The position numbers and the translations under genes are program-made. This document shows, piece by piece, positions 3,989 through 18,821 of a DNA stretch of 22,170 nucleotides (the stretch's first letter is position 1; every line of letters starts with the position of its first letter). Location: positions 1 to 22,170 of the forward strand of contig JBNJGH010000054.1 of assembly GCA_051747585.1 (NCBI GenBank), read 5' to 3'. The stretch is from Candidatus Rifleibacteriota bacterium. GTDB lineage: Bacteria > Muiribacteriota > Ozemobacteria > Ozemobacterales > Ozemobacteraceae. Under the pieces are notes generated by a model. It was not told where the DNA came from. It ran no database searches and saw only the letters and a program-made list of their open reading frames with translations.

Positions 3989-3989
3989 A

Positions 3990-5081
3990 TTACTCACCTT
4001 CAATTACAACTTTATGCACATATTCTGAAGTAGAAAGAGCCAGTAAAGCACCATAATCGGGATAAAAGCCAATTTCATCGCCAACCTGATATTCACACCG
4101 GCTGTCATGCACATCCAGTATCAGATGGTCACTCGAACCACCCAGAACAATAATTCCCTCATCGATTGGGGTTATGCCGTCAACTAATACATCCTGACGG
4201 CCTAAATTGCAAATAACTCTTTTTCTGTTTCCGCGGTCGACAAATTCCTGAGTCTCGCCAAAAGCGTCCTGACCTCGATCTCCGATTGGTAACGAAGGTT
4301 TCATTTCTGCCTCTATTACTTCGCCCACAGTAACAAAGGTATCCTGCCTGGTTTCTGGCCAGGGCGAACGATCTGTAACATTACGACCAAGAATTATAGA
4401 TTCTCCGATTCGATATAAATTAATTTCTTCGGGTAATTTGCCCTCACGCATAATTGGCAAACCGGAACTGTTGCCACCGCAAATTACCGGCAGCTCCAGG
4501 CCGCTATACTCTCTGCACTTTTCGACTGTATCTATAAGCAACTTCATGTTTTCAGCCGAAGGTTTAACACCTCCATAACAGGCAAGATTACAGCCAAGTC
4601 CAACAGCTTCCAGACCTTTGAGCTCACCGGCTTTTTTTACCAGCTCAGGAGCTTTGGCTGGCCAGGTACCCTCTCGCAGATCGCCGACATCAATCATTAT
4701 AATTACTCGGTGGAGCAAATTTTTCTGGCAAGCTGCTTCAGATAAGGCTTCTAAAGTTTTAAAGCTGGAATTCAAACTATAATCTGCAAGTTCGACAACC
4801 TCATGAGCCTTTGAAATCGAGGGTAAGCGCAATAAGAGAAACGGCCCTTTAAACCCGGCCTTTCTAAGTTTTTCGATATTTTCAAGCCTGGAATCTGCCA
4901 GCATATCGGCACCGGCTTCTTCAAGAGCTCGGGCAACCCGGGGGTGAGCAGAGACTACTTTTGTAACGCAGGCAACTTTGATTTTATTTTGATGGCATTG
5001 TTTTATTACAGCTTTTGCGTTTTGTTTGATACGCTCGGGATAAATTTCGAGTCTGGGAGTTTTAAACCTTCTGGTTTGCAT
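3990..5081 (-). CDS. orr: Ornithine racemase-like PLP enzyme (alanine-racemase-fold, YhfX/Orr family). Start is uncertain: ATG at 5081 (preferred, 4 nt after the MutL-like stop), or the alternatives at 5099 or the TTG at 5120.
   Basis: VTKVVSAHPRVARALEEAGADMLADSRLENI, LLLRLP, MIDVGDLREGTWP, GLGCNLACYGG and GGNSSGLP match what I recall of Clostridium sticklandii ornithine racemase. Its position downstream of oraSE and the mutL-like gene mirrors the known ornithine-fermentation cluster. Confidence 0.65.
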   Translation of the reverse strand: MQTRRFKTPRLEIYPERIKQNAKAVIKQCHQNKIKVACVTKVVSAHPRVARALEEAGADMLADSRLENIEKLRKAGFKGPFLLLRLPSISKAHEVVELADYSLNSSFKTLEALSEAACQKNLLHRVIIMIDVGDLREGTWPAKAPELVKKAGELKGLEAVGLGCNLACYGGVKPSAENMKLLIDTVEKCREYSGLELPVICGGNSSGLPIMREGKLPEEINLYRIGESIILGRNVTDRSPWPETRQDTFVTVGEVIEAEMKPSLPIGDRGQDAFGETQEFVDRGNRKRVICNLGRQDVLVDGITPIDEGIIVLGGSSDHLILDVHDSRCEYQVGDEIGFYPDYGALLALSTSEYVHKVVIEGE

Positions 5082-5085
5082 ATCT

Positions 5086-6429
5086 TTAAAGCTGTTCATA
5101 TTGCTTAATCCAATCTTCAAAAGTATTTTTTATGAGTTCAGGGTATTCAATGGCTATAGTTCCCAGGGCGGAAAAAAGGTAATCTCGGTCAAGGAATATT
5201 TGAGCATCGGGTTTAGGCAAAAGAGATCTGGCCGGACCGGTGCAAACCGATTCAAGTATTTTTTCGCCTCCATCTACTCTGGTAAGAGCCCCACCTGTTC
5301 CGATAACCCATTTTACTGCGGATAAATCTTTTCCTCTAATAATTTGTTTTTTACCCGAGGGAGTAAAAAGGTCGCCAATTACTCCGGCATGTCTTTTAAC
5401 GCCGGCTTCAACTGCCTTTTTACATAACCACCTGGTAATTTCTTTTTCCTGTTCGGTTGCAGGCATTGCTTTAATGTCATCTACTCTCTGCATCCAGATT
5501 TCGTCATCTGCCAATTCAAGAACATTACGGGCATTGACAAAAACACCGAGATCACCCTCGACGGTACGTTTACATCTTGGTTCAGGATCTATGAGTTTGT
5601 CGGCAAATTCTGTACTGCCTTCGGTTACAGAATGCACATCAGTAGTAGCACCACCCACATCAACTATCAGGCAATCACCGGCTACCTCGGCAAACAATTC
5701 TGCCCCCTTTAGAACAGCTCCTGGCGTCGGAATAATCTGGCGCTCAGTAAGACTTTCGAGTCTGTGCATACCCGGAGCATGAATAATGTTTTTTGAAAAA
5801 AGTTGCTGCATTTTCTTTCGCAGCGGTTCAACTTCAAGCACGTCGACATCAGGAAAAACATTGGGTGTAATTAAAAGCTCTACACCTGTTTTTTTGAAGA
5901 TATTGGCAACCGCTCGCTTCAAAGCGCTATTACCGGCATAAACAACCGGAACATGCAGGTCAAGCGAAGCAATTTTTATGGCATTCTGTAAAACAACTTC
6001 TTTTGCTCCAAAATCAACTCCACCAGCCAGAACGATCATATTAGGCTGAATTTCTTCTATTTCTTCAAGATCAAATTCGCTTAAATCACCGGCAGTAACC
6101 ATTTTTATTATTGCTCCGGCACCGAGACTGGCCTCTCGTGCCGCTCTGGCAGTCATATTATAAGTTAAACCATGAACCGTAACCCTTAGACCGCCGGCAG
6201 CAGAACTATTTGCAAAAATTTCGGCATTATCGCTGTCAGCACCAGACTTTTGTTCAAGGTCATCAATAGCACTTTTGAGTCCAATTCCAACATTGCCCTG
6301 CTCGACAGTTGTCGAAGCAAACCCCTGAGCTACATGCTTCAGAGAGTTGTGATCTGTTTTAACAAAACCATTTGCTTTTGTAATGGTACTGCCGACTTCA
6401 AGCGTTAAAATTTCTATTTTCATGCTCAT
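5086..6429 (-). CDS. MutL/GlmL-like protein (glutamate mutase component L family; ASKHA-type putative reactivating chaperone for B12-dependent mutases). Start placed at the internal ATG (MSMKIEI...).
   Basis: N-terminal LEVGSTITKA, SSAAGGL, GAGA and VDVGGATTDVHSV motifs are typical of MutL/GlmL. The SD GAAGG lies 8 nt upstream of the ATG at 6429. The longer ORF reaching 6492 has no RBS and overlaps a predicted promoter. Confidence 0.7.
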   Translation of the reverse strand: MSMKIEILTLEVGSTITKANGFVKTDHNSLKHVAQGFASTTVEQGNVGIGLKSAIDDLEQKSGADSDNAEIFANSSAAGGLRVTVHGLTYNMTARAAREASLGAGAIIKMVTAGDLSEFDLEEIEEIQPNMIVLAGGVDFGAKEVVLQNAIKIASLDLHVPVVYAGNSALKRAVANIFKKTGVELLITPNVFPDVDVLEVEPLRKKMQQLFSKNIIHAPGMHRLESLTERQIIPTPGAVLKGAELFAEVAGDCLIVDVGGATTDVHSVTEGSTEFADKLIDPEPRCKRTVEGDLGVFVNARNVLELADDEIWMQRVDDIKAMPATEQEKEITRWLCKKAVEAGVKRHAGVIGDLFTPSGKKQIIRGKDLSAVKWVIGTGGALTRVDGGEKILESVCTGPARSLLPKPDAQIFLDRDYLFSALGTIAIEYPELIKNTFEDWIKQYEQL

Positions 6430-6463
6430 TAATTTACCTTCTGCATAAAAAAATTGGAAAACA

Positions 6464-6492
6464 ATACTACCACAGGCCAACTGCTGCCTCAA
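6464..6492 (-). promoter_or_regulatory. Candidate sigma70 promoter for the mutL-like/orr/alr operon: TTGAGG, 17 nt spacer, TAGTAT (read on the minus strand)
   Basis: The -35 and -10 hexamers were seen directly in the sequence at the correct spacing, ~30 nt upstream of the SD/ATG at 6429. Confidence 0.3.
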
Positions 6493-6507
6493 CTATCTCT
6501 CTGAATA

Positions 6508-6521
6508 GTCAGGGCAATTGC
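6508..6521 (-). promoter_or_regulatory. Copy B of the repeated motif GTCAGGGCAATTGC (core CAGGGCAAT), centred ~85 nt upstream of the mutL-like start codon
   Basis: The same 9-11-mer occurs at 9760-9770 (same orientation, ~94 nt upstream of oraS) and inverted at 7026-7040 (just downstream of the oraE terminator). Confidence 0.35.
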
Positions 6522-6709
6522 ATTAAAATCCTGAACCCCACATTAACTCTTGGCAGACAGTTTCATCTAAATAATCAGCAATTTTCAGTGAACCGTTATA
6601 AGCTGGTTTTCAAAAGTTTTGCTTTTATTTCTTTCTGTCAAATATAGAATTTTCACCACCGAGATCACAGAGTGCACCGAGACAATTTTTTAATCTTTTT
6701 CAGCCTATG

Positions 6710-6775
6710 TTCACAATATTACTCAGCATTCAGAAAAGCATTAATGTTTTTCTGAATGCTGAGTAATATTGTGAA
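6710..6775. repeat. 66-bp near-perfect palindrome: 28-nt arms ttcacaatattactcagcattcagaaaa / ttttctgaatgctgagtaatattgtgaa around a 10-nt spacer gcattaatgt that is itself one mismatch from palindromic
   Basis: Verified base by base. The right arm (6748-6775) is the exact reverse complement of the left arm (6710-6737). Confidence 0.9.
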
Positions 6776-6776
6776 A

Positions 6777-6818
6777 GCCGGACGGTGAAACCGCCGGCTG
6801 ATTGTCCAAAGGACAATC
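6777..6818. other. Two further tandem stem-loops immediately after the palindrome. The first is a GC-rich hairpin GCCGG(a)CGG-tgaaa-CCGCCGGC (6777-6798). The second is GATTGTCC-aaa-GGACAATC (6800-6818).
   Basis: Both stems were checked by direct complementarity. On the minus strand the GC hairpin is followed by TTTCAC. Confidence 0.6.
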
Positions 6819-7025
6819 CACGGCTGAAAAAGATTCTCTGTGATTCTCTGAGGGCTCTGTGGTTATTTTCTTTGTGGCTTTGAGGCTTGGTGTGAGGCAA
6901 ATTCTTTTCTGAAATGATTTGATAGTCGCTGACCAAGAATTGCTATACGCAAGCGTTGTTTTTGCTAACAAAAGCGAGCAAACGTAGATTTATGAAAATG
7001 AAATGTCTGCCCGATTTTTTTTGTG

Positions 7026-7040
7026 CGATTGCCCTGTCAG
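7026..7040 (+). promoter_or_regulatory. Copy A (inverted) of the CAGGGCAAT motif: cgattgccctgtcag on the + strand, which reads CTGACAGGGCAATCG on the minus strand
   Basis: Forms a long-range inverted pair with copy B (6508-6521), flanking ~520 bp of structured non-coding DNA. Confidence 0.3.
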
Positions 7041-7085
7041 AATAAGAAAAAGCTCCGGTGCGTCGCCATCAGCAAGCACCGGAGC
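7041..7085 (-). terminator. Rho-independent terminator of the oraS-oraE transcript: stem GCTCCGGTGC / GCACCGGAGC with a 14-nt loop, followed on the minus strand by TTTTTCTTATT
   Basis: 10-bp perfect GC-rich stem at 7052-7061 / 7076-7085. On the minus strand the U-run follows immediately, 14 nt after the oraE stop (7099-7101). Confidence 0.7.
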
Positions 7086-7098
7086 CCTGTTTGTCAGT

Positions 7099-9303
7099 TT
7101 AGATTTTACCTTTTTTCTTAAGGGTTTTAACGATTGAATCTACCACTTGAATTCCTTTGGAACCCCGACCGAATCCGTCATCCATACCGCATTCCTGCGC
7201 TATTTCTCTGGTAACCTGAGTTCCGCCACAGATCAGAATAATATCATCTCTTATTCCTTTTTCGCGACAAAGTTCATCGAGCTTGCGCATGTTTTTACGA
7301 TGAACATCATTATGGCTGATAATTGTACTGATAAGAATGGCCTTGGAACCGGTTTCGATTGCGGCATCAACCATTTTGCTAACCGGAACGGAAGTGCCGA
7401 GATAATGATATTTAGCACCAAATTTTTCAATTCCGGCGTGTTTAATATCAAGTATTTCGCGTAGTCCGACCGAATGCTCGTCTTCGCCTACGGTTCCAGC
7501 AACAACAGTAAGTCCGGCTTTTTTGATTCCTTCGCGTATTTCGTCTTCTGAAAGCATTTGAACTTTAGGAGGAATTTTAAGATTGGTGCGATCAATCGAG
7601 AAATCAACTTTACCCTTCACCTCAAGGAAAGTGCCTTCTGATGGATGGATAACCTGCGCATTGGTAACTTCGGGTTCGAGCAAACCCATCTTTTTAGCAA
7701 TTTCATTGGCCGCTGCTTTGGCTACTTCGAGCTCTTCGGGCAGGAAAATCTGAACAAGAACGGTTCCATCACCCGCCCATTCTACTTCAGGTTTAATTGA
7801 TTTACCTTTACGGTATTCAATTGTTTTTTCGAGCCTCAAATTGCAGTTGTCAGTCTGGTCAATTTCATCTATGTAATGAATTTTTTCTGGTTTGCACAGA
7901 GTGCAACCATCAATAAGGTCACAAGGCTTTTTAATATTTTCCGGCAGTTTGTTATGACCAAAATTGCTGCAAACCGGTGCCATATAGTCTTTTTCTCGTT
8001 CGACTATGGTATCAATACCTACGCCACCCTTACCGCTTCTTGCGATTCCATCACCGTTTCGTTCAGGATATTTGGCCGAATCAACGAAGAAACCTTTTTC
8101 GACGGCAGCAAAGTATCCGCCGCTTTCCAGCATTTCTTCAAGGAAGCAAATCGCTCTGATCTTGAGGTCTCTTACCATTTCGCCCAAGGGGCCTTCGCGA
8201 TCAATTTTAAGCAGTTGCTTGATGCCATCGAGAGCTACCAGGGTCTGCTTTGCGGTTTCCACCCCTCTGACACTGTTATAATGCCATGGCACGTTTCTAC
8301 CTTCATCTGGAGTTATTGTACTTTGAATATCGGAATGGGTTAGAGCAGTTATAAGGGTATCAATAACATGAGTACGAGTTGCTTCTTCAATATCGGATTC
8401 TATATATCTTGTATTTTGCTGAGCTCGGAATTTAAATTCTTTAAAGAGATCTCTTAAAGCAACAGCATAAGGAAGATCATACCAGAGTTTTGGTGAAGGA
8501 GGAGCACATGGTGGAACAGTTGAAAGCCCGATTTGTGACTTTGGCATTCCTACAGCTACAGAGAAAGCACAGTTGATACCATGCTGAACCATAAGTTCAG
8601 GCATGACTGCCCAGCCTTCGCGTGCGGTAGCATTTGCATTATGGGCACCATCAATCTGAAAAATATGAGCATCTGCCATTATTTTTTTCGCATTTGCCGC
8701 ATCAGTAAATGAGCGATACATGTTTACATTGCGATAAAGAACATTATATTGAGGATCCTGGTGCGCACCGTTTATTCCTTCTTCGGCGAATAGAACAGCA
8801 ACTTCGGGACCTGCTACACCGGAAACATAAGAATGAAAGTTAATCGGGCGCCCGACTTCATCTTCAATCATATCGCAGGCTTTTCTTGAGGCTCTGATCT
8901 GCTTTCTGGTTATTGGAACCCCTCCGACTCCTTCGGGTGTTCCTTCGAGTAAGCCATCGATGTGGCTTTGCCCGGTTGTTCTAATAACCATAATATGGTC
9001 AGCGCCGTGCCATGCGGCCATTCTCATACGACGAATATCATCTTCAAAACGACCTGAAGCTATTTCTGTGCTGATAACAGGTTTAGGCTGAGGATCTATG
9101 TTATTAAAATATTTTGCAGCAGGCAGGGGAACCGAATTTTTTAACGGTTCGCTCATGTCTTTAAAATTGAACTTTTCTACCTTATAACCATCTTTTATAT
9201 GGTTGCGCCAGGTCCAACCTTTGCGCCGAGGATGATAATCCTTTAAATTTGTGAGTATTTCTTCTATATCGAGTTTTTTTTCGGGGTTTAATTTTTCTGT
9301 CAT
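7099..9303 (-). CDS. oraE: D-ornithine 4,5-aminomutase large subunit E, B12- and PLP-dependent (a KamD/KamE-like fusion)
   Basis: 734 aa. The motif run PRRKGWTWRN ... IASGRFEDDIRRMRMAAWHGADHIMVIRTTGQSH ... GAHQDPQYNVLYRN matches what I recall of C. sticklandii OraE. The C-terminal B12-binding Rossmann domain carries a DxHxxG motif (EDEHSVG). SD GAAAGG lies upstream of the ATG at 9303. Confidence 0.9.
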   Translation of the reverse strand: MTEKLNPEKKLDIEEILTNLKDYHPRRKGWTWRNHIKDGYKVEKFNFKDMSEPLKNSVPLPAAKYFNNIDPQPKPVISTEIASGRFEDDIRRMRMAAWHGADHIMVIRTTGQSHIDGLLEGTPEGVGGVPITRKQIRASRKACDMIEDEVGRPINFHSYVSGVAGPEVAVLFAEEGINGAHQDPQYNVLYRNVNMYRSFTDAANAKKIMADAHIFQIDGAHNANATAREGWAVMPELMVQHGINCAFSVAVGMPKSQIGLSTVPPCAPPSPKLWYDLPYAVALRDLFKEFKFRAQQNTRYIESDIEEATRTHVIDTLITALTHSDIQSTITPDEGRNVPWHYNSVRGVETAKQTLVALDGIKQLLKIDREGPLGEMVRDLKIRAICFLEEMLESGGYFAAVEKGFFVDSAKYPERNGDGIARSGKGGVGIDTIVEREKDYMAPVCSNFGHNKLPENIKKPCDLIDGCTLCKPEKIHYIDEIDQTDNCNLRLEKTIEYRKGKSIKPEVEWAGDGTVLVQIFLPEELEVAKAAANEIAKKMGLLEPEVTNAQVIHPSEGTFLEVKGKVDFSIDRTNLKIPPKVQMLSEDEIREGIKKAGLTVVAGTVGEDEHSVGLREILDIKHAGIEKFGAKYHYLGTSVPVSKMVDAAIETGSKAILISTIISHNDVHRKNMRKLDELCREKGIRDDIILICGGTQVTREIAQECGMDDGFGRGSKGIQVVDSIVKTLKKKGKI

Positions 9304-9321
9304 TATGCCTAACCTTTCTAC

Positions 9322-9672
9322 TTAAAAAAGATTGTCGAGAGTTGTTTTGTCTTCGGCGATTTTTTGGGCCGCTTCAGGAATTTTGATGTTGTTTTTCTCT
9401 GAAACGCGCAAAACAACATGCCCGGCACCTTTACCAAGCAATCCGGCTTCCTTGACAACATTTACAACTGCTTGAGAGGTCATACTATCTATGCCCATGC
9501 GCAATAATACAGAACGCTCGATTGAAGGCGAAGTAAAATTACGCCCATAATCAACCATGGGTTCAACAACTTTTTCGCATAAACTCCAGAACTTGTCTTT
9601 AAGCTCATCATTGCTCATTTTTTCGAGTTCTTTACGACGAGCTTCAAACTTTTTAATTCTTTCTTCGCTCAT
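9322..9672 (-). CDS. oraS: D-ornithine 4,5-aminomutase small subunit S
   Basis: 116 aa. SPSIERSVLLRMGIDSMTSQAVVNVVKEAGLLGKGAGH matches the conserved OraS core. It lies 18 nt upstream of oraE, with the SD AAAGGA before its ATG. Confidence 0.85.
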   Translation of the reverse strand: MSEERIKKFEARRKELEKMSNDELKDKFWSLCEKVVEPMVDYGRNFTSPSIERSVLLRMGIDSMTSQAVVNVVKEAGLLGKGAGHVVLRVSEKNNIKIPEAAQKIAEDKTTLDNLF

Positions 9673-9788: not shown

Positions 9789-10289
9789 TCATGAATTCTT
9801 TCTTTCGGCATTTCGAACATAAATATTGAAGGTAAATGCAGGAGTTGTTGCAAAATTTTCGCTCGATACAAGTTTGAATTGTTCAGAAGAAAATTCCGGA
9901 AAATATTTGTCTCCTTCGTAAGCTTTTTCAATAGTAGAAAGATAAATTCTATCTGCAAAAACCAATGCCTGGTGGTAAACACTTTCGCCGCCGGCTATAA
10001 AAACTTCTTGGGAGAAATTCAATTCATCTGCAATTTTTAAAGCCTGTTGCATGCTTTCAGCGGTTAAAGCTTTTTCAAACATTGCATCTGGCTGACGAGT
10101 CAAAACTATTGTCTTTCTTCCCGGCAGAGCTTTACCAATGCCTTCAAAGGTTTTTCGTCCCATTATAAGAGTTTTATTCATGGTAATTTTTTTGAACAGT
10201 GCAAGTTCTTCGGGTATATGCCAGGGCATTTTACCCCGATTACCAATCAAATTGTTCTTATCTCTGGCCGCTATGATTGAAATAATCAT
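9789..10289 (-). CDS. folA: Dihydrofolate reductase
   Basis: MIISIIAA..NLIGNRGKMPWHIPEELALFKKITMNKTLIMGRKTFEGIG..LPGRKTIVLTR is a textbook DHFR N-terminus. 166 aa. Confidence 0.85.
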   Translation of the reverse strand: MIISIIAARDKNNLIGNRGKMPWHIPEELALFKKITMNKTLIMGRKTFEGIGKALPGRKTIVLTRQPDAMFEKALTAESMQQALKIADELNFSQEVFIAGGESVYHQALVFADRIYLSTIEKAYEGDKYFPEFSSEQFKLVSSENFATTPAFTFNIYVRNAERKNS

Positions 10290-10342: not shown

Positions 10343-10371
10343 ATCTGATATGATTGACAACCTTTAAGCAA
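10343..10371 (+). promoter_or_regulatory. Candidate sigma70 promoter TTGACA, 17 nt spacer, TAACAT, upstream of the PsiE-like gene; divergent from folA
   Basis: The hexamers and spacing were seen directly. The SD GGAGAG at 10388-10393 precedes the TTG start at 10397. Confidence 0.35.
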
Positions 10372-10396
10372 AGTCATAACATAAGATGGAGAGAAC

Positions 10397-10828
10397 TTGG
10401 AGTCAAACGAAATAAAAAAAGAGAACAAAGAGATGCCCAGGGTAACCAGAATATCTAAGTTACTGCATAGAGCGACGTTATGGAGCGAACGTATCTTAGC
10501 TATTTCCATTCTATTGGCAATGGCGGTATTTTTTTATACGATGGTTGCCTCAACCGGTAGCTATGACTGGACAAAAACCGAAGCGCTCTATGACATCATC
10601 AATAGAATACTTCTTCTGGTTATTTGCCTGGAATTGATCAGGACTCTTCTTACCCATGACCTTGAGGCGGTATTGGAGCTACTTGCCTTTGTAGTAGCCA
10701 GAAAAACCATGGTTCCGAACCTGACCGTGATAGATATTCTGTTAAGCGTTATCGCTTTTGTCTTATTAATTCTGGCAAGAAAGTATTGTATACCGACAGA
10801 CTCTCCGCTTAGACTGGCGCGCAAATAA
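10397..10828 (+). CDS. PsiE-like small inner-membrane protein (phosphate-starvation-inducible E family), 3-4 TM helices. Start is either the TTG at 10397 (good SD) or the ATG at 10433.
   Basis: Size, hydrophobicity pattern and the loose pattern DWTKTEALYDIINRILLLVICLELIRTLL resemble PsiE. The start codon at 10397 is TTG. Confidence 0.5.
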   Translation: MESNEIKKENKEMPRVTRISKLLHRATLWSERILAISILLAMAVFFYTMVASTGSYDWTKTEALYDIINRILLLVICLELIRTLLTHDLEAVLELLAFVVARKTMVPNLTVIDILLSVIAFVLLILARKYCIPTDSPLRLARK

Positions 10829-10878: not shown

Positions 10879-11772
10879 ATGTTAAAAAAACAAAATAAAC
10901 TGGCAAGGCTGTTAAAGAACTTTATTTTCAGTGGTCTTGACGAAAACAATACCGACATAGAAACCCTTCGACAAGTTGGGATGCTTAATGCTTTAATTGT
11001 TGTAAGCCTTATAATTCTTTTCCCTTTAAGCATTATCGCTCTAAAGCAACAACTATATCAGCTTTTATTCGTCGAAACACTTGTGTCTATTTCTCTGATT
11101 TCGATTGTCATTTTTATGCGCAAAACCAGCGACTATTGTAAAGTTTCAATTCCCACAGTTGTTATTGCCGGAATCTTTTATGCGTATCTGCTTACTACAG
11201 GAGGGAAAGCCAACACCGGATTCATCTGGATGTTTTCTTATCCATCAATAGCAACCTTTCTTCTCGGAATCAGAAAAGGCATTTTTTTTTCCTTCCTGCT
11301 TTTTATTTACAGCCTGGCTATAATGTTTGCCGAGCAAAATATTGTTCCAACTACTGCAAACTACACATTTAGCTTGAGTGTTAGAATATCTTTTTCTTAC
11401 TTATTGATTTGTCTTTTTGCCTGGGCAGTCGAATCAACCAGAGCAACTGCGCAATTTGAATATCATCAAATAAACGATGAACTACAAGATTCATGTAAAG
11501 AGCTGGAAAAAAGACATCACGCAAAAAAAGAAATTATAACCGAACTACGCGAAGCCATAGTCGAAGCAGAACAATTAAAACGAATTTTGCCCATCTGTTC
11601 CAGTTGTAAAAAAGTTAGAAATGATACAGGCTACTGGGAAAAAGTCGAACGATATTTTAACCAGCATTCCGGAACAAAATTCAGTCACAGTGTTTGCCCG
11701 GACTGTGCAAACATCTATTACAAAGATATTTTAGACGATGAAGAAAACGGCAGTGCCCGAAAGATTGTATGA
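10879..11772 (+). CDS. Membrane sensor-like protein: six predicted TM helices, a coiled-coil linker, and a C-terminal Cys4/His2 (CxxC...H..H...CxxC) zinc-ribbon-like module
   Basis: Six hydrophobic segments in residues ~35-185, the coiled coil ELQDSCKELEKRHHAKKEIITELREAIVEAEQLKR, then ILPICSSCKKVRNDTGYWEKVERYFNQHSGTKFSHSVCPDCANIYY. The stop overlaps the next gene's ATG (ATGA). Confidence 0.7.
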   Translation: MLKKQNKLARLLKNFIFSGLDENNTDIETLRQVGMLNALIVVSLIILFPLSIIALKQQLYQLLFVETLVSISLISIVIFMRKTSDYCKVSIPTVVIAGIFYAYLLTTGGKANTGFIWMFSYPSIATFLLGIRKGIFFSFLLFIYSLAIMFAEQNIVPTTANYTFSLSVRISFSYLLICLFAWAVESTRATAQFEYHQINDELQDSCKELEKRHHAKKEIITELREAIVEAEQLKRILPICSSCKKVRNDTGYWEKVERYFNQHSGTKFSHSVCPDCANIYYKDILDDEENGSARKIV

Positions 11773-12611
11773 AAAATTTCATTAATTTTTTAAAAGGTTT
11801 TCCGGCGCCTGAAGAGGACGATAGATTAAATATCGAGCTCCGGCGAAAAATAACGGTACTGAATCTGTTTTTGCTAATAGGCAGTTTTTTTACCTTTATT
11901 CTCGGCATTATTACATTTAGGAGCGGCAACACTTTCATTACCGCCGTAGATACTCTTGCATTGTTAATCTTCAGCTCGCTTTTTATTTATTTGCGAAACA
12001 ATAGAAACTTTGAACGCTGCGCAACTCTTTCAATTTTTTTTGTCGGACTTTTTTTTGTTTTTCTTTTTGCTACGGGTGGAATAGATAAAACCTCTTTTGT
12101 CTGGGTTTTTCCTTTTCCAATGATTGCAATTTATCTAACCGGAGTTAAAAAAGGAACTTATGCAACTTTAATTATGCTCTTTGCTATGATTATTGTATTT
12201 CTTACCGGTTCCAGCATACCCCAGTTTGCAAATTATGAATTTAATGTCAAAATTCGTACTATTCCAGCATTTATTTTAATAACCCTGTTTTCTTTTACGA
12301 TTGAAAAAATGACTTTGCTTGTCAGTAATAAACTTCTAAGCGCAAGAAAGTTACGAGAGAAAAATTTACACAAGTTAAAACAGATGGACGAAGAGAACGA
12401 AAAGCTTATAAAAGAACTTGAAAGCAAGCTTGGTGAAGTAAGAAGTTTGCAAACTATTTTACCAATTTGCTCAATTTGCAAAAAAATTAGAAACGATGAT
12501 GGCTATTGGGAAAAAGTAGAAAAATATTTTCATCAGCATTCGGGCACCGTTTTCAGCACCAGTCTTTGCCCTGAATGTGAAAAAAAACCTTCTAAAAAAC
12601 CCGACAATTAA
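11769..12611 (+). CDS. Paralogue of the preceding gene, with the same architecture (6 TM, coiled coil, C-terminal Cys4/His2 module)
   Basis: C-terminus ILPICSICKKIRNDDGYWEKVEKYFHQHSGTVFSTSLCPECEKK is near-identical to the upstream paralogue. The membrane domain is divergent but colinear (TGG..GF.W.F..P). Confidence 0.7.
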   Translation: MKNFINFLKGFPAPEEDDRLNIELRRKITVLNLFLLIGSFFTFILGIITFRSGNTFITAVDTLALLIFSSLFIYLRNNRNFERCATLSIFFVGLFFVFLFATGGIDKTSFVWVFPFPMIAIYLTGVKKGTYATLIMLFAMIIVFLTGSSIPQFANYEFNVKIRTIPAFILITLFSFTIEKMTLLVSNKLLSARKLREKNLHKLKQMDEENEKLIKELESKLGEVRSLQTILPICSICKKIRNDDGYWEKVEKYFHQHSGTVFSTSLCPECEKKPSKKPDN

Positions 12612-12613
12612 AA

Positions 12614-15325
12614 CTATTTTTCTTTGTCGCTATTTTCGTCTTCTTCCATGTTGTCTTCTGCAGCGGGAAAAATTCGATAAATAATAATTAAAAGAATCAG
12701 GGTTACTAACCCCATAACAAAATAAAGACCCCAGCCTTTTTCACTGAATGCATCTTTAATGTTCTGTTTCACTGCAGGTTCTGAATAAGTATTTATTTCT
12801 TTAAGTGCTATTTTTCGAGGCTCTTTGGTTAAAAGCTCGTCACGCACCAGCTCAAGATCATATTCCGGTTTTTCGGCGTTGGAATTTCCACCATAAATCA
12901 AATAACTACCGGGCTGAGAGGCTTTAAAAAAGAGATCCTGAGTAGAATAAACCGCATTAACTGCAGTAACAACCACGGGACTGTTTTCGTTATGCATAAC
13001 AACTAATTGAAGCTGATTTTCACCTACAGGTAGATTCTTTAACGATAGTAAAAAGCTGTTATTCGGGTTTTCACCCTTCCATATCATGGTTTTCCATTCA
13101 CGCCAGCCAAGATTCCCGGGTTTGGGCAAATTAACTTTGATCGAGCGCTGAAAAGTTCCCGGAAGATTAAATGAAAGAGATTTATAAAACTTCGATGCAA
13201 CCGGCAGGTGAATATTATAAGTGGTTATATTCTTTTCCCGGTCGTAACTTTGCTCGAAAGACAGAGCAAAAGCTTCATTATAAGGTTTTCCGAGGAAATA
13301 AGGGATCTGATTACCGTTTTTTACAATTCTTATTGAATCGCGATGATTATCTAAAGCAGCCTCATGATTAAGTTTAAGCTGGCATAGACCTGCGACGGGC
13401 ATAGTAAAGCTCCCTACCCAGCGATAACCTTGTCCCTTAAAAGGTGCTCCTTCAGGCTTCATGGCAACTGCCGGCGAAGTTTTTGTTTCGGAGCCATTAA
13501 AATAGATCAGGTCTGAATGAGAAACTTTTTCAGGAAACAATTCCGCTAATTTATCCTGAATCATTTTAAGGTCATAACTTGGCCTTTCAGCGTTTTTATC
13601 ACCACCATAAAGCTGGTATTTTCCCGAGCCTGAAGCTATAAAATAAAGATCACGGACATTGATTTCAGCAACAATCGATTCAAGCGGTAAAGAGTAGTTA
13701 TTACCGTTATCGATTACAATTTTTATTCTTTTCTGGTTTTGCGGAAAATCCTTTAAAGATAAATCAATTACAATCTCTTCGTTCTTTTCATTTCGCAAGT
13801 TTAAGCGTTTAAAAACCTGCCATCCGACTTTGCCGGCAGTATGTTTGTATAAAGTAACATCGCGGTCAAAAATTCCTGAGGTTTTTATTTTGAGCCGATC
13901 GGGGTTTCTTTTGCCCGATGGAAAATCTATATAAAAGATTGAATGATTTTTTTGGGCATCGAATTCCTTTTTATAATTCAACCGATAATCACGCTTATAA
14001 TAACGCCCTCTAAAATAGGGGATCTGTTGTTGGTCTTTAACTATGCGCAGACTGTCTAAATAATTGTCAAAAAAGACTCTTGAAGATAATTCAAGCTGAT
14101 AAAACCCGGGCTTATCTACATTCACATCAGCTTTCCATTTGTATCCATCAGCAGAAAAGGGACCACCGGCAAGAGAAATATCTTTTAACACACTTTCTGC
14201 CTCGTAATCGCTATTATGTTCGACTTCACCGCTTTTCACCTGCATTGGAGCCCGACCTTCGAGCACACTTGCAAATTCAAGAATCTTTTGGTTTTTATTA
14301 AGACCGGTTTCAAGACGATATCTACCGGATATATCTGCAGAAAATACAATGCGGGGTAAGCGAAATCGGGCACTAATTGAAACAATTTTTCCGTAATGGT
14401 CAGCCGGACTTAACTGAAGAATAAGCTTTCGGCTTTTCCAGGTTCGGTTAACAGGAATACCTACATTCTGGGGATCCTGACGCATCGTTTCAAAGCCACC
14501 CGATAAGATTTCATTGAATTCGGGTCTGCCAAGAACAAACTTTTCTGTTCCCACGCGCCATTTCCCTTTAAACATTGCAGAGGTTTCAACTATCAGTTCT
14601 TCAATAAAAATAGATGTTCCGGGCAGGTTTATTCGCAACTCATCGGCATTTTCTCTGTTTATAACGTCGTAAGACAAAAAGTTGGTAAGATTCTTATATC
14701 CTTTTCCGCCTCTTCTTCCCTTTACATAAACGTCAACTGAACTAATTGGCGTTTGGCTGAATTTTTCGTCAAAGCCCGAGAAACGCAATCTGATCTTTTC
14801 TACCACTTTTTCTTCTGTTTCTATTCTGACAATTCCCGTTAATTGCTGTGGACTGGAGCGGAGTATGGCAGCTCCAGTAGCAACACTGTGCCATCTATTA
14901 TCATAAAAGATCTGGAATTCCATTTTTGCAGCCGGTGGAGCATAGGGCAAATTAACTTGAATACCGCTAATCAGGTGATTCTTCGGGACATCTGCCTGCC
15001 ATAAAAGCTGGTTATCTTTTTCCCACTCCGTTTTATCGGCTTTGATTCTTATCAGGCTCTGGTCTCCAGATTCGCGCCAATATAACTCAAGTGCTCTGGG
15101 CTGGCTGTCTGGTCCGAAAAGGCTTAAATCAAGACAATTGTTAACTATTTGTCCATTTTCATCTATAAAACTTTTATGCAATTCCGGTTCAAGAAATGAA
15201 TTTACAGTTCCCGTTGCAACTACATCTAACTCAGCACGACTTAACCATTGTGAAGCAAAAACAATCGGAGAAACAAAGACAAAAATAAAAAGAATTATGA
15301 TTTTATAGTTAAAATTAGCATTCAT
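12614..15325 (-). CDS. DUF3999-like exported protein: signal peptide, internally duplicated large extracytoplasmic region, C-terminal TM anchor and acidic tail
   Basis: N-terminal signal peptide MNANFNYKIIILFIFVFVSPIVFASQ and C-terminal TM GLYFVMGLVTLILLIIIYRIF followed by EDNMEEDENSDKEK. Internal repeats are present (DSLRIVKDQQQIPYF / DSIRIVKNGNQIPYF, and DLYFIASGSGKYQLYGGDKNAERPSYDL / DLFFKASQPGSYLIYGGNSNAEKPEYDL). The ATG at 15325 is preceded by the SD GGAGAAA and lies 4 nt after the upstream gene's stop. Confidence 0.7.
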   Translation of the reverse strand: MNANFNYKIIILFIFVFVSPIVFASQWLSRAELDVVATGTVNSFLEPELHKSFIDENGQIVNNCLDLSLFGPDSQPRALELYWRESGDQSLIRIKADKTEWEKDNQLLWQADVPKNHLISGIQVNLPYAPPAAKMEFQIFYDNRWHSVATGAAILRSSPQQLTGIVRIETEEKVVEKIRLRFSGFDEKFSQTPISSVDVYVKGRRGGKGYKNLTNFLSYDVINRENADELRINLPGTSIFIEELIVETSAMFKGKWRVGTEKFVLGRPEFNEILSGGFETMRQDPQNVGIPVNRTWKSRKLILQLSPADHYGKIVSISARFRLPRIVFSADISGRYRLETGLNKNQKILEFASVLEGRAPMQVKSGEVEHNSDYEAESVLKDISLAGGPFSADGYKWKADVNVDKPGFYQLELSSRVFFDNYLDSLRIVKDQQQIPYFRGRYYKRDYRLNYKKEFDAQKNHSIFYIDFPSGKRNPDRLKIKTSGIFDRDVTLYKHTAGKVGWQVFKRLNLRNEKNEEIVIDLSLKDFPQNQKRIKIVIDNGNNYSLPLESIVAEINVRDLYFIASGSGKYQLYGGDKNAERPSYDLKMIQDKLAELFPEKVSHSDLIYFNGSETKTSPAVAMKPEGAPFKGQGYRWVGSFTMPVAGLCQLKLNHEAALDNHRDSIRIVKNGNQIPYFLGKPYNEAFALSFEQSYDREKNITTYNIHLPVASKFYKSLSFNLPGTFQRSIKVNLPKPGNLGWREWKTMIWKGENPNNSFLLSLKNLPVGENQLQLVVMHNENSPVVVTAVNAVYSTQDLFFKASQPGSYLIYGGNSNAEKPEYDLELVRDELLTKEPRKIALKEINTYSEPAVKQNIKDAFSEKGWGLYFVMGLVTLILLIIIYRIFPAAEDNMEEDENSDKEK

Positions 15326-15329
15326 AGTG

Positions 15330-18300
15330 CTATTTCTCCTTCATATTGGATAAAAATCGTTGATATAAATATGATACAAGCATCAATATAACAGCAAGGC
15401 CAATAAAAGAGGCTACGCGATAAAGCTGTCCGAGTGACCACAAATCTTTAAGGAAAATTTTAACCGAAGTAACAATTATTAAAACAAGAGCAGCCTGTCT
15501 TGCCCTGACTGCGTTCCAGCGGATTCCGGCACCAAGCAGAGCAATGGCGTAAAATAACCAGCCAAGACTATAACTAAGTTGTTGAGCAAATCTTCCGTGG
15601 GTCAACAAGCTGAAGCTTGATCCTTTACTGCCAAAGAAGCTTGCAATCTCTATGTTCAAATAGGCAAAAGATAGCAAAGCCAACGTGACTGACCAGAAGG
15701 GAATCTCGTTAATGCTGTAAAGCGGCCACTCTTCTGCTACTTTTTTGCGGCCAAGTAACCAGAGGGTAATAAAAGTGATCAGCAGATAAAGCGCACTTAC
15801 CTGATTAAACAAAGGAGCCATTTTGCCAAATTCTGCTGCGTATCTGAACGGGAACAATACTGAAGCAAGAATTCCAATGAAAATAAGAATCAGGCCGGCC
15901 AATCTATAAGAATTATCAAGTTTTTTCGGCCATTTATGCATCATAAGACCGTATACAAACCATACCCCTGTTTTTGCCAATGACACATTGTGTTTTACGT
16001 CTGAAAAGATGTCGACAGCCAGCACATTAAAGAAATAAAAGGTAAAACCAAAGGCAATCCATTTAAAATATTTTACGATATTGAACCATGAACAAGGCTT
16101 TTCATCAGGATATCCGGCAAGCTTTACCGCCAGAACACAGGATATGGAGCCTGCCAGGGCAGATAGTACTACAGGATTCAAAACTTTTATGCCACCGGCT
16201 TCTTTTAATTGCGGGAAATAGGAAATAATTAGATAAATACCTATTGGTGACAAAACCGAAGCAACATAGCGTAATCCGGGATGTTCGATTCTTCGGTTAA
16301 GCCAAAGAAGAGCTGTTGCTTCGAAAACAAATACAAGACCAAGCCAGCCAGCTTCAAGCATAAGAGCAGGAACCGCCGAAACATAAAACAACATTGCTCC
16401 ACCATGAAATGCAAGAATACTGTTTCTGGCAGTGTTTTTTTCAAGTTGCCGCAAGAGTATCAAGACCACCGGGATTTTAACAAGAGCAAGAATTAAAGGA
16501 ATCAAGCCTGATATTGATCTGGCCCAGATATGATCGGCGGCATAAACGATAAAAACAGCCTGTAAAAGTTCAAAAACGGGCCAACCCATCCATGACTTTT
16601 TGTATTTTTCGAAATTTTTAAAAGCAACAAATGGAATTATTAAAGCAATTACAAAAAAGGCAATTGACCACAACAATGCGGTAAAGTGGTGCGAAAGTAA
16701 AAGATCGGGGCGCAATACCCAGAAAGCCTGAGCCAGCACGGCCGAAAGCAAAGAAGCAATGCCAAGATAACCATAATTTAATCTTCTTGCCAGAGTTTGG
16801 GCAATGACCAGAAAACAGAACATTGTTACCATTCCCGGGTTGGGATTCAGCGGTTGGCTTTTAAAAAAGGCTGCGGCAAGAATAAAAAACATTCCCATAA
16901 TTGGAGAAGCTGCAGCCCATTCATTAATGGCCGAGAGGTTATTTTTGTTTTCTTTTATCGGGGTTTCGAAATTAAGCTTCTGAGCTATAGCGGCGGCATT
17001 GCGCAAAAAGATAAAGGTAACAATACATATTGCCAGACCGGCCATAAGAATAAAAGCGTAAAAAGCAAGACCAAAAGTAATGACCGAAGCCTTACTGATA
17101 AATATAATTGCAGAAAAAACCAGAATAAGGGTTAAAACAAATAAGGGGGCAAAAGCAGAAAAAACAAGGCTTAATGCTATTCCCATAAGTTGAATCCCAA
17201 TGGTCATGGGCCAGAAGAGAAATGCAGTATCAGGATTGATTAGAAGCGCCATCAAACTTAGCAAAGCCAAAGCTGAGGGAAAAATTTTAAACCACTTCAA
17301 TATCTGCTGATTCAAACCATATTTATGGACAAGCAGAACCGGCCCCAAGCCGCCTGCAATGCCATAGGCAAAAAACAACAAATAGGCCCAGGAGCTGATT
17401 TGAGGATTCAAGCGAAAAAACACCCAGCAAGCTGTTACCAGAAAAGCAAAAACCGACAAGGGAATGACATCTTCAAAAAAGAACCTGATACGATAAGCTA
17501 AAACAACCAGCGCTGCTACAGTGGCAACAATTAAAAGTAATGGTGAGGGGCCTGTTCTATAAATAGCGAGGACAAATGCTGCAAACGGCATGGCAAAAGT
17601 AGATAATCTTACTGCCCAGGCAGCCAGTCGATTGGTGCTGTAATTAAATTCGAGCTTTAAAAAATAAATAGAATACAAAGCAAGGTGAGCAGCAAAGGTA
17701 ATTGCTATATGCGAGGTTATTGGAGAGGGCCTGGAAAACATTGCTACCAAAGCGAGGGTTACCATTGTACCCAATGAAGAAAACAGCAACAAACCACCGG
17801 ACTTAAGTCGTTTTATGACCTGATACAAGCCAAGATTAACTATGACAAGATAAATAAACAGAGTAAGAATATTTCCCTGGCCGGTGTTAACAAGCAGAGG
17901 AGTCAGGTAAGCGCCAAGAGCACCCAGAAAAGCTATAGAAACGCCCCGGTGAAAAAGTGCCAACGAAAGCGCTGCTACCGATACGACGACAAGAGCAGCA
18001 AAACCCGGCATTTTCGCAAGATACTCGTAATAAAGAGTAGCTGCGAAGAAAACCGAATAGAGCACGCCTATACCACCGGCAGAAAAAGTCTGCCGCAATA
18101 TATTGTATCTTTTTCTATCGAAAACGAAAGATGCACCTATAAGTCCAACCCCGATTATTGCAGCAACAACAAGCCTCATAATCGGAGAAATAAGATTATT
18201 ATCTATAGAATATTTGACAAAGAAACCTGCACCGACAAAAAGTGCAAGTCCGCCAAGCCATGCAAATAGCTGAGTGCCGGTAAATCTTTCCCAGTCGATT

Positions 18301-18821
18301 TCTGAAAAGAAATTGGACCAGTCGAATTGATTGTTTTCAGGTGGTCTTGGCGGGGTTGGCGGTGATTTATGGGCAGAAGCAGCAGGCTTGGAAACTTTTT
18401 CAGGTTGTTCATCTAGATGCTTTGCTTCAGGCTCGTCAGGCTGTTTGGCCTGTTTTTCGGCAGACTTGCGTTTAATACTCTCTGCCAGCCATTCATATTC
18501 TTCTTCTTTTGTTACTCCTGTTTTTTGTTCGTCGATAACCTTTTCGGACTCTTCTTTATTAACCGGCTCGTCAGAAAAAGAAAGTTCAGAAAAATCAGCT
18601 ACTTCATCGCTTTGCTTTTCTGTCTTTTTATCTGGTTGAGATTGTGGTTCAGTTTGTTCATATTTATCAAGCCTCTTTTTAAGTATATCCAATCGATCTT
18701 TAAGAAGCTTGACCTGAAACTGAAGGGTTTCTGTAATTTCTTTGTTTTGCTCTTTTAATCTTTTGACGCTCGACCAAAGAGCTGCAAGCAAAATCAGTAT
18801 TAATAAAACCAGAATTTCCAT
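15330..18821 (-). CDS. DUF2339-like giant polytopic membrane protein (1163 aa): N-terminal TM, coiled coil, acidic/Lys-rich and Pro-rich linker, then ~25-30 TM helices
   Basis: The architecture was read from the translation: MEILVLLILILLAALW, then LQFQVKLLKDRLDILKKRLDKYEQ, then PPTPPRPP, then a continuous run of hydrophobic segments to the C-terminus. A strong SD AAGAGGA lies 7 nt before the ATG at 18821. It pairs with a DUF3999-like gene, as in the known DUF2339/DUF3999 gene pair. Confidence 0.7.
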   Translation of the reverse strand: MEILVLLILILLAALWSSVKRLKEQNKEITETLQFQVKLLKDRLDILKKRLDKYEQTEPQSQPDKKTEKQSDEVADFSELSFSDEPVNKEESEKVIDEQKTGVTKEEEYEWLAESIKRKSAEKQAKQPDEPEAKHLDEQPEKVSKPAASAHKSPPTPPRPPENNQFDWSNFFSEIDWERFTGTQLFAWLGGLALFVGAGFFVKYSIDNNLISPIMRLVVAAIIGVGLIGASFVFDRKRYNILRQTFSAGGIGVLYSVFFAATLYYEYLAKMPGFAALVVVSVAALSLALFHRGVSIAFLGALGAYLTPLLVNTGQGNILTLFIYLVIVNLGLYQVIKRLKSGGLLLFSSLGTMVTLALVAMFSRPSPITSHIAITFAAHLALYSIYFLKLEFNYSTNRLAAWAVRLSTFAMPFAAFVLAIYRTGPSPLLLIVATVAALVVLAYRIRFFFEDVIPLSVFAFLVTACWVFFRLNPQISSWAYLLFFAYGIAGGLGPVLLVHKYGLNQQILKWFKIFPSALALLSLMALLINPDTAFLFWPMTIGIQLMGIALSLVFSAFAPLFVLTLILVFSAIIFISKASVITFGLAFYAFILMAGLAICIVTFIFLRNAAAIAQKLNFETPIKENKNNLSAINEWAAASPIMGMFFILAAAFFKSQPLNPNPGMVTMFCFLVIAQTLARRLNYGYLGIASLLSAVLAQAFWVLRPDLLLSHHFTALLWSIAFFVIALIIPFVAFKNFEKYKKSWMGWPVFELLQAVFIVYAADHIWARSISGLIPLILALVKIPVVLILLRQLEKNTARNSILAFHGGAMLFYVSAVPALMLEAGWLGLVFVFEATALLWLNRRIEHPGLRYVASVLSPIGIYLIISYFPQLKEAGGIKVLNPVVLSALAGSISCVLAVKLAGYPDEKPCSWFNIVKYFKWIAFGFTFYFFNVLAVDIFSDVKHNVSLAKTGVWFVYGLMMHKWPKKLDNSYRLAGLILIFIGILASVLFPFRYAAEFGKMAPLFNQVSALYLLITFITLWLLGRKKVAEEWPLYSINEIPFWSVTLALLSFAYLNIEIASFFGSKGSSFSLLTHGRFAQQLSYSLGWLFYAIALLGAGIRWNAVRARQAALVLIIVTSVKIFLKDLWSLGQLYRVASFIGLAVILMLVSYLYQRFLSNMKEK

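Follow-up and report, generated by a model that had tools for sequence, protein, structure and literature searches.

The window analysed here is a complete contig of 22,170 bp from a metagenome-assembled genome (MAG) of Candidatus Rifleibacteriota. Its forward strand contains two overlapping genes, referred to as ORF-A and ORF-B, whose products both consist of an N-terminal membrane sensor of a known family, a coiled-coil linker, and a C-terminal block of approximately 45 residues with four cysteines (the Cys4 block). The block is a widespread, uncurated terminal module of bacterial one- and two-component signalling proteins, and we infer from sequence comparisons that it is the output of the two proteins. 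The features of the gene pair were as follows.

10879..11772, + strand: ORF-A (ACQETH_08850, annotated as 'hypothetical protein'), 297 aa; MASE6/MASE11 sensor with six transmembrane (TM) helices, followed by a coiled coil and the Cys4 block
10978..11451, + strand: MASE6/MASE11 domain of ORF-A, residues 34-191, six TM helices
11431..11586, + strand: coiled-coil linker of ORF-A, extending to the block from Glu185, a conserved residue where TM6 ends; 55 residues from this Glu to the first Cys of the block (Cys1)
11584..11715, + strand: Cys4 block of ORF-A, ILPICSSCKKVRNDTGYWEKVERYFNQHSGTKFSHSVCPDCANI; C240, C243, C273, and C276
11769..11772, + strand: ATGA overlap between the stop codon of ORF-A and the start codon of ORF-B, suggesting translational coupling
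11769..12611, + strand: ORF-B (ACQETH_08855, annotated as 'hypothetical protein'), 280 aa; MASE6/MASE11 sensor with six TM helices, followed by a coiled coil and the Cys4 block
11850..12308, + strand: MASE6/MASE11 domain of ORF-B, residues 28-180, six TM helices
12303..12458, + strand: coiled-coil linker of ORF-B, from the conserved Glu179 to Cys1, 55 residues as in ORF-A
12456..12587, + strand: Cys4 block of ORF-B, ILPICSICKKIRNDDGYWEKVEKYFHQHSGTVFSTSLCPECEKK; C234, C237, C267, and C270

A sequence-only reading of this stretch had described the two ORFs as tandem paralogues overlapping by ATGA. The coordinates of this description were exact, and the proteins were colinear with 33% identity over 271 aa (BLASTP, E 6e-54), far above chance. 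The signature TGG(K/I)..T(G/S)F.W.F..P, reported by the same reading, was also found between TM3 and TM4 of both. On the other hand, the two blocks had been called almost identical: they were strongly conserved, but only 32 of 44 residues (73%) were the same. At the DNA level, the blocks were 74% identical with a longest run of identical nucleotides of 11 nt, and synonymous differences were present at 14 of the 31 codons of identical residues that were capable of variation. Recent gene conversion was ruled out by these values (14/31 synonymous codon differences and the 11-nt maximum run). Since synonymous codons differed and identical runs were short, the likeness of the blocks was attributed to purifying selection on the protein.

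The MASE6 model (PF20966) matched ORF-B and ORF-A with 48.6 bits (E 1.2e-12) and 34.8 bits (E 2.2e-08), respectively, over profile positions 9-166 of 170, and the related MASE11 model (PF20969) matched them with 33.5 and 36.5 bits; the Pfam gathering thresholds are 27.4 bits for MASE6 and 27.3 bits for MASE11. Because both models covered the same residues, MASE6 and MASE11 were not separable for these proteins. The six TM helices assigned earlier to each ORF were confirmed, but the domains, then presented as sensor-like, are members of the already known MASE6/MASE11 family; the sensor part is ordinary. In a hydropathy scan, six hydrophobic segments were found per ORF, with outer loops of merely 2-9 residues. 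The N- and C-terminal regions were rich in Lys and Arg, and both termini, hence also the C-terminal block, are therefore assigned to the cytoplasm by the positive-inside rule.

MASE domains are promiscuous integral-membrane sensors combined with various outputs, and the reported partners of MASE11 include HD-GYP, PAS, GAF, GGDEF-EAL, and histidine kinases (bioRxiv 10.1101/2021.11.05.467447). In the same report, MASE11 was described with seven predicted TM segments, two of which form an intramembrane hairpin, whereas six were seen by hydropathy in ORF-A and ORF-B; their TM3 and TM4, linked solely by the TGGxxxT loop, could be read as a hairpin. With their minimal periplasmic loops, the two proteins resemble other MASE proteins and belong to this promiscuous sensor class. 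They differ from the described MASE11 proteins in that, apart from the sensor, they carry only the Cys4 block, which is uncurated: neither HisKA/HATPase_c nor a helix-turn-helix (HTH) domain was found in ORF-A or ORF-B by Pfam and NCBIfam scans, nor a Guanylate_cyc (PF00211) catalytic domain by the Pfam scan. The earlier claim that the block is joined directly to a membrane sensor with no kinase, cyclase, or HTH domain was thus upheld.

Between the sensor and block, hydrophobic residues occurred at -24, -21, -17, -14, -10, -7, and -3 from Cys1, corresponding to a/d heptads that run into LLPIC. Counted from the conserved Glu where TM6 ends, Cys1 lay at a distance of 55 residues in both ORFs and in five relatives, 62 (+7) in P0006, and 34 (-21) in P0113; among the relatives measured, only the MASE8-type P0033 was out of heptad phase. 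In 29 homologues in which two sensor-block units are fused into one chain (see below), 50 of 57 half-linkers were congruent modulo 7 with those of ORF-A and ORF-B, and the two halves had linkers of the same length in 24 of 28. P0053 is one of these homologues, and in its AlphaFold model TM6 and TM12 each ran on as a helix of ~50 residues to the block. Since the linkers varied in whole heptads, they probably act as signalling helices that couple the sensor to a dimeric output by register.

The spacing CxxC-29-CxxC was found with zero indels in all 42 proteins returned by a full-length search with ORF-B. In A1, a block profile of 57 columns, the invariant columns were L, P, I, C, S, C, K, W, F, C, and C. 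The four Cys were invariant over 280 copies, which partly reflects how these copies were chosen, and also in A1, A3, and A5, three alignments that were built independently. Similarly, Trp at +13 from Cys1 reached 100% in the 280-copy set, where it was a selection criterion, and its column was invariant in the same three alignments. The other conserved positions of the 280 copies, counted from Cys1, were P-2 (99%), K+4, R+7, and D+9 (95% each), G+11 (96%), E+17 (93%), Y+19 (89%), and P+34 (85%). The two His residues proposed as further ligands were conserved in 81 and 87%; the second was Thr or Gln in the ORF-B lineage (FSTS, FSQS), whereas the ORF-A lineage retained FSH(S/G). The ORF-B block itself had neither the near-invariant His at +30 nor the YP tail. 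Of the Cys4/His2 module proposed in the sequence-only reading, the Cys4 part therefore stood, all four Cys being invariant in every homologue examined, but the His residues were not a conserved ligand set. These results suggested that the block is a domain of ~45 residues held by one metal, most likely Zn(II), on the four Cys. A clade-specific change was found just before LLPIC, at the junction of the coiled coil and the block: position -5 from Cys1, where 91% of the family have Gly, was occupied by Arg in the A lineage and by Thr in the B lineage.

The same residues raise the question of whether the block instead senses redox state or metal, through a labile Zn(Cys)4 thiol switch, a rubredoxin-like Fe site, or a [2Fe-2S] cluster, and is hence a second input. 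Four invariant Cys with two often conserved His would suit such a site, as would the second knuckle, CPxC, which we take to resemble rubredoxin-type knuckles, and many of the host lineages are anaerobic. On the other hand, the His was dispensable in the ORF-B lineage, no Fe-S or rubredoxin model of Pfam matched even at E <= 10, and the block was also present in aerobic lineages (Verrucomicrobiota, Gemmatimonas, and Acidobacteriota). The position of the block bears on this explanation as well and is considered together with its domain partners below.

The AlphaFold model of the block (pLDDT, the predicted local distance difference test, of 81) showed a knuckle at the first CxxC, which was followed by a short beta-hairpin and then by two helices. 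The second CxxC opens the latter of these helices (H47-53) and lies outside any hairpin. The metal site had been described as zinc-ribbon-like; the four invariant Cys agree with this, but the predicted order is treble-clef-like and not that of a two-hairpin zinc ribbon. A classical zinc ribbon was rejected because the second CxxC begins a helix in the model and no zinc-ribbon model of Pfam scored above its threshold, the best being Ribosomal_L32p (E 0.079) and Zn_ribbon_HMPTM (E 2.3). Searches of the block against Pfam-A (E <= 10), NCBIfam, and PADLOC returned noise only and no family, and no match by sequence was obtained in PDB, whether a single sequence or the profile served as the query. 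The expectation that the block is free of a match to a characterised family was therefore borne out in Pfam-A, in NCBIfam, and, by sequence and fold, in PDB. No paper describing the block was found by full-text searches including motif strings, the coverage of which leaves out most subscription journals.

Several known small metal domains were compared with the block. The CxxC-29-CxxC spacing is identical to that of conserved region 3 (CR3) of papillomavirus E7 (PF00527). CR3 contains a hairpin with a knuckle, a helix, and a second CxxC that opens the last helix, and is an obligate dimer and a platform for protein interactions. The CR3 structure 2f8b was the nominal top Foldseek match of the block, with E 5.3 and a TM-score of 0.18. 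Homology was rejected (hhalign probability of 1.9%, no significance in Foldseek, and no Pfam match), and the likeness is almost certainly convergence or coincidence. The ClpX zinc-binding domain (ZBD), DksA/TraR, L32, and bacterioferritin-associated ferredoxin (BFD)-like proteins are also small Cys4 metal domains, the ClpX ZBD being a dimeric protein-interaction module, but the spacing and the conserved non-Cys residues of the block are unlike those of the ClpX ZBD/C4 treble-clef and zinc-ribbon families. The ClpX ZBD (zf-C4_ClpX) was rejected as a homologue, with an hhalign probability of 10%, two gaps needed, and no Pfam match, and membership of DksA/TraR was rejected because no Pfam match was obtained even at E <= 10. 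The pattern of BFD-like [2Fe-2S] proteins is C-x-C...C-x2-C. The first motif of the block is CxxC, not CxC, and BFD-like identity (PF04324) was rejected on this ground and for lack of a Pfam match at E <= 10.

In an exhaustive search of 1.84 billion representative proteins (clusters at 50% identity) with the A1 profile, block matches were obtained in 24,067 representatives at E <= 0.001, including 19,863 at E <= 1e-10. A domain census was made on the best 150 of the 24,067 matches, which is a biased sample. The Pfam partners in these 150 proteins were PAS (46), MASE6 (24), and REC (15), followed by HAMP, GAF, PocR, Reg_prop/Y_Y_Y, dCache, and CHASE; kinase, cyclase, phosphodiesterase, and HTH outputs were absent, and no Pfam family covered the block. 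In the 42 homologues of ORF-B, the block stood behind PAS, GAF, REC, HAMP, CHASE3, MASE8, DUF3365, and other inputs. The block had been described as a C-terminal module of PAS, GAF, and receiver proteins; it was indeed found there, and in addition behind HAMP, MASE6/8, CHASE, CHASE3, PocR, dCache, Reg_prop/Y_Y_Y, and DUF3365. The hidden Markov model (HMM) catalogue of partners proposed at the same time was thereby made and contained, in the best 150 of 24,067, input or transmitter domains only.

At least 588 block loci were confirmed when one genome per species was scanned. They were distributed among Desulfobacterota, Verrucomicrobiota, Lentisphaerota, Acidobacteriota, Nitrospirota, Ignavibacteria/Kapaibacteria, Calditrichota, Latescibacterota, KSB1, Spirochaetes, Gemmatimonadota, Hydrogenedentota, and others. 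The block had earlier been placed in delta-proteobacteria, but the range is far wider and extends over many phyla. In 147 of 147 genomic copies, at most 45 residues separated the end of the block from the stop codon, and in 92% at most 20. An association with mobile elements or phages was rejected, as only 4 loci were found in 2.9 million viral contigs and a single match on plasmids. This plasmid match (NZ_CP028898.1, 36166-36303, - strand; 56% identity) is from the gammaproteobacterium Dongshaea marina and had no annotated feature beneath it.

If the block were a redox or metal sensor, the REC-, PAS-, and MASE-block proteins would be without any output, and this explanation is disfavoured for that reason. 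Moreover, the C-terminal site and the coil of fixed register match the place of the transmitter or output in histidine kinases and cyclases. The one source name that points to Fe-S is that of P0228, a stand-alone block protein of 91 aa labelled 'bacterioferritin-associated ferredoxin' by the Joint Genome Institute (JGI); this label, which is also the only link of the block to BFD, speaks for a redox function but is probably automatic. Taken together, we regard a redox or metal sensor as improbable.

A few sensor-less mini-proteins of 66-74 aa, consisting of coil plus block, appear to be real: a divergent gene lies upstream of P0211 (L169), P0273 (L170) is separated by a gap of 129 bp from the unrelated gene before it, and P0229 and P0200 were judged by their Met starts only. 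The other 'stand-alone' mini-proteins were rejected as split or partial genes. In two independent samples (L171, 4337-5207; L172, 3122-3992), a stop codon and a shift of frame lay between a multi-TM gene of 217 aa and a coil-plus-block ORF of 68 aa; this arrangement represents either a genuinely split gene or a frameshift or pseudogene that recurs.

Pairing of the blocks was conserved beyond the window. In a relative with 74% identity (L001/L002), the A-then-B order was kept in the same context of DHFR and a 143-aa ORF, and a relative with 45% identity (L003/L004) contained orthologues of A and B with an 8-nt overlap. Further tandems of block genes were present in L087 and L096. The top 42 matches of the exhaustive search were all double-block proteins. 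Most of these 42 were chains of 490-560 aa with the layout [5-6 TM - coil - block] x 2 (about 30 clusters), and other double-block chains carried REC, PocR, PAS, or Reg_prop/Y_Y_Y sensors. Both halves of the fused chains were homologous to ORF-A and ORF-B across the membrane domain (23-31% identity), with bit scores against the two so similar that no A/B orthology was separable. Because about 30 clusters fuse two [6TM-coil-block] units, the paired blocks are probably the working unit, and a block pair fed by two sensor units is a recurrent design in these sequences. The heteromer proposed in the sequence-only reading gains from the A-then-B order kept at 74 and 45% identity and from the natural fusions, but the tandems are clade-specific. 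Tandem pairing as a general rule for membrane-type block genes was rejected, since it was seen at only 1 of 17 loci; P0008 and P0033 were likewise encoded by single genes. The homodimer is probably the default in this family, with the tandem or fused heterodimer a clade-specific elaboration.

The AlphaFold model of the fused P0053 had a predicted TM-score (pTM) of 0.75 and pLDDT > 90 in its TM regions. Its best PDB analogues were membrane adenylyl cyclases (AC9 and the AC9 TM domain, AC5, and Rv1625c; 9u3v, 9u3r, 6r3q, 8sl4, and 7yzk; Foldseek probability 0.89-1.00). These enzymes (mammalian AC9/AC5, Rv1625c/Cya of M. tuberculosis) have the same [6TM - helical domain - paired output] x 2 layout, in which TM6 is prolonged into a cytoplasmic coiled-coil helical domain and the small output domain is functional only when paired; they are homodimers (Rv1625c) or one-chain pseudo-heterodimers (AC9), whereas two genes or one fused chain are used here. 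In contrast to the cyclases, ORF-A and ORF-B have no catalytic domain, and their output would be the 45-aa Cys4 domain. As far as the model shows, the likeness is one of layout only, with no evidence of homology.

Partner genes were sought around the block genes. When neighbours up to three genes away were clustered for 66 genome loci, one recurrent cluster (23 loci) was obtained, and it contained generic signalling proteins. In a Pfam census of 82 close neighbours on the same strand, only HATPase_c/HisKA, REC, and PAS recurred, in at most 9 each. Because surface residues are near-identical across thousands of paralogues and no linked partner was found, one shared target encoded elsewhere is suggested. 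The lack of a target in these searches (66 loci, 82 neighbours) would also suit a block that is only a metal-stabilised cap for dimerisation or stability without a signalling role, the sensors acting alone, e.g., by ligand sequestration. Small Zn domains are often structural clamps, and the coiled coil already implies dimerisation. A cap, however, does not need K+4, R+7, D+9, and E+17, polar residues of surface type, to be conserved above 90% across phyla; it leaves the sensor-less coil-plus-block mini-proteins of 66-74 aa unexplained; and REC with a mere cap would be unusual for a family of 24,067 representatives. We consider it the least probable of the explanations weighed here.

In the 45%-identical relative, a membrane gene with HAMP and Guanylate_cyc domains was found directly 5' of the A-B pair (L003, 8-1312; L004, 31-1314), without a gap in between (1312/1313), and may link the pair to cyclic-nucleotide signalling. 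This neighbour bears on the possibility that the block binds, as a receptor, a nucleotide second messenger or another small ligand (e.g., cyclic di-GMP [c-di-GMP] or a cyclic mononucleotide), by which the sensors would be tied to a global pool. Small c-di-GMP-binding motifs use Arg, Asp, and aromatic side chains, and comparable chemistry is offered by K-K-I-R-D-D-x-G-Y-W and E..Y of the block. On the other hand, no PilZ, MshEN, or other known receptor model matched, the cyclase neighbour was present in one lineage only, GGDEF, EAL, and cyclase domains were not enriched among the 82 operon-like neighbours, and a small domain with one metal leaves little room for a pocket. A ligand receptor is thus very doubtful, if not quite so improbable as the cap.

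The explanation towards which we lean, without strong conviction, is an A·B heterodimer whose metal-stabilised heads are moved by the coil and bind a target encoded elsewhere; our confidence is high for the architecture and modest for the output step. ORF-A and ORF-B would assemble into a bundle of 12 TM helices, a two-helix coiled coil, and paired Cys4 heads. The signal is probably perceived by the six-helix MASE6 sensors within or at the membrane, because these sensors have almost no periplasmic loops. TM6 would extend as a parallel coiled coil in a fixed heptad register, along which the signal may be passed as a rotation or shift that moves the two heads relative to each other. This movement would strengthen or weaken their binding to a conserved partner in the cytoplasm, which is more probably a protein than a nucleic acid. 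The inferred parts of this model are which metal is bound, that a heterodimer forms, that the signal travels by helix rotation, and what kind of target is bound.

A number of results weigh against the heterodimer with Cys4 heads as its output. The block model had no significant fold neighbour in PDB (Foldseek), and nothing is therefore transferable from a known fold. In the P0053 model, the blocks themselves reached pLDDT 53-72 only, and its cyclase matches were not significant (E 0.06-0.8; root-mean-square deviation of 14-19 Å). At 16 of the 17 other membrane-type block loci, the gene was single; since singles dominate, the heterodimer is not obligatory in the family, and ORF-A and ORF-B could each homodimerise. 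The bias of the domain census towards the best matches is a further point. Lastly, in the rare response regulators P0036 and P0038, the block is followed by a ribbon-helix-helix domain (REC-block-RHH, PF20605) or an HTH domain (REC-block-HTH_17, PF12728), respectively, and because a DNA-binding domain follows, the block in these proteins would be a hinge or dimeriser and not the final output.

The same fusions, which place the block in DNA-binding proteins, favour the reading that the block is itself a dimeric zinc finger that binds nucleic acid; its proteins would then be one-component regulators, tethered to the membrane in the case of ORF-A and ORF-B. The basic triad K+4, K+5, and R+7 is conserved just past the first knuckle, and the blocks are paired on a coiled coil, as in many dimeric DNA binders. 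HalOD2, an output domain of halobacterial response regulators with unknown function, has a helical N-terminus and two highly conserved C-terminal CXXC motifs, is a predicted Zn finger, and has been predicted to bind DNA or RNA (Galperin et al. 2018, PMC5847659). It appears, by analogy, to be the closest described item in concept; by its description it is set apart from the block, since its CXXC motifs are 20-25 residues apart versus the fixed 29, and it is confined to a few halobacteria, whereas the block is bacterial and very widespread. Against binding of nucleic acid, the net charge of the block was slightly acidic on average (mean of -1.3), and no variation able to confer specificity was seen. 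We consider this reading unlikely, if somewhat less so than a redox or metal sensor.

What appears to be novel in these sequences is an abundant, highly conserved, and uncurated output module in a heterodimer-style tandem that recurs as fusions. A broader proposal, offered tentatively and with clearly more doubt than the heterodimer mechanism, is that the block represents an unrecognised major class of output with a reach like that of PilZ or HPt, through which thousands of sensors converge on one target. If so, PAS, REC, GAF, and MASE sensors of Desulfobacterota, PVC (Planctomycetes, Verrucomicrobia, and Chlamydiae), FCB (Fibrobacteres, Chlorobi, and Bacteroidetes), Acidobacteriota, Nitrospirota, and Spirochaetes would converge on a shared target, e.g., a part of the machinery for transcription, translation, proteolysis, or motility, and ORF-A/ORF-B would be a two-input heterodimer that merges two membrane signals into one output. 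Censuses sort signalling proteins by their output domain, so that input-only proteins are effectively invisible; a definition of the block would give an output to many entries named 'PAS domain S-box protein', 'response regulator', or 'hypothetical protein', which sit in environmentally important anaerobes and in soil and sediment phyla. The tandem and fused MASE6 forms would also be a natural system in which to study the joining of two membrane sensors to one output, a counterpart of the pseudo-heterodimeric membrane adenylyl cyclases.

The remaining features of the window, starting with those closest to the gene pair, were as follows.

10354..10382, + strand: sigma-70-like promoter candidate, TTGACA-17-TAACAT (10/12), in the divergent intergenic region
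10397..10828, + strand: small multi-TM ORF of 143 aa with a TTG start, 51 nt 5' of ORF-A, possibly co-transcribed
9789-10289, - strand: DHFR, after the aminomutase set
9322-9672, - strand: OAM_alpha
7099-9303, - strand: Lys-AminoMut_A/OAM_dimer/B12-binding protein
5086-6492, - strand: MutL-type protein
3990-5120, - strand: alanine-racemase-fold protein

The site at 10354-10382 possibly drives the 143-aa ORF, ORF-A, and ORF-B as a unit of three genes; its consensus match is weak, and 9 sigma-70-like sites were found in the intergenic region versus 7.4 expected by shuffling. The 143-aa ORF matched no Pfam family above threshold (a PsiE-like match had a sub-cut-off E of 0.02) and was kept beside the pair in L001/L002 only, the HAMP-cyclase gene taking its place in L003. 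The neighbours of ORF-A and ORF-B in the window were unrelated to the pair. Upstream, a gene set for D-ornithine 4,5-aminomutase (2864-9672, - strand) points to a pathway of ornithine fermentation in this Rifleibacteriota MAG. On the other side, two very large adjacent genes (12614-18821, - strand) converge on ORF-B; one encodes a protein of 903 aa for which Pfam gave no match, the other a DUF2339 membrane protein of 1163 aa. The AT skew was strikingly high at 16-18 kb of the window, reaching up to +0.385.

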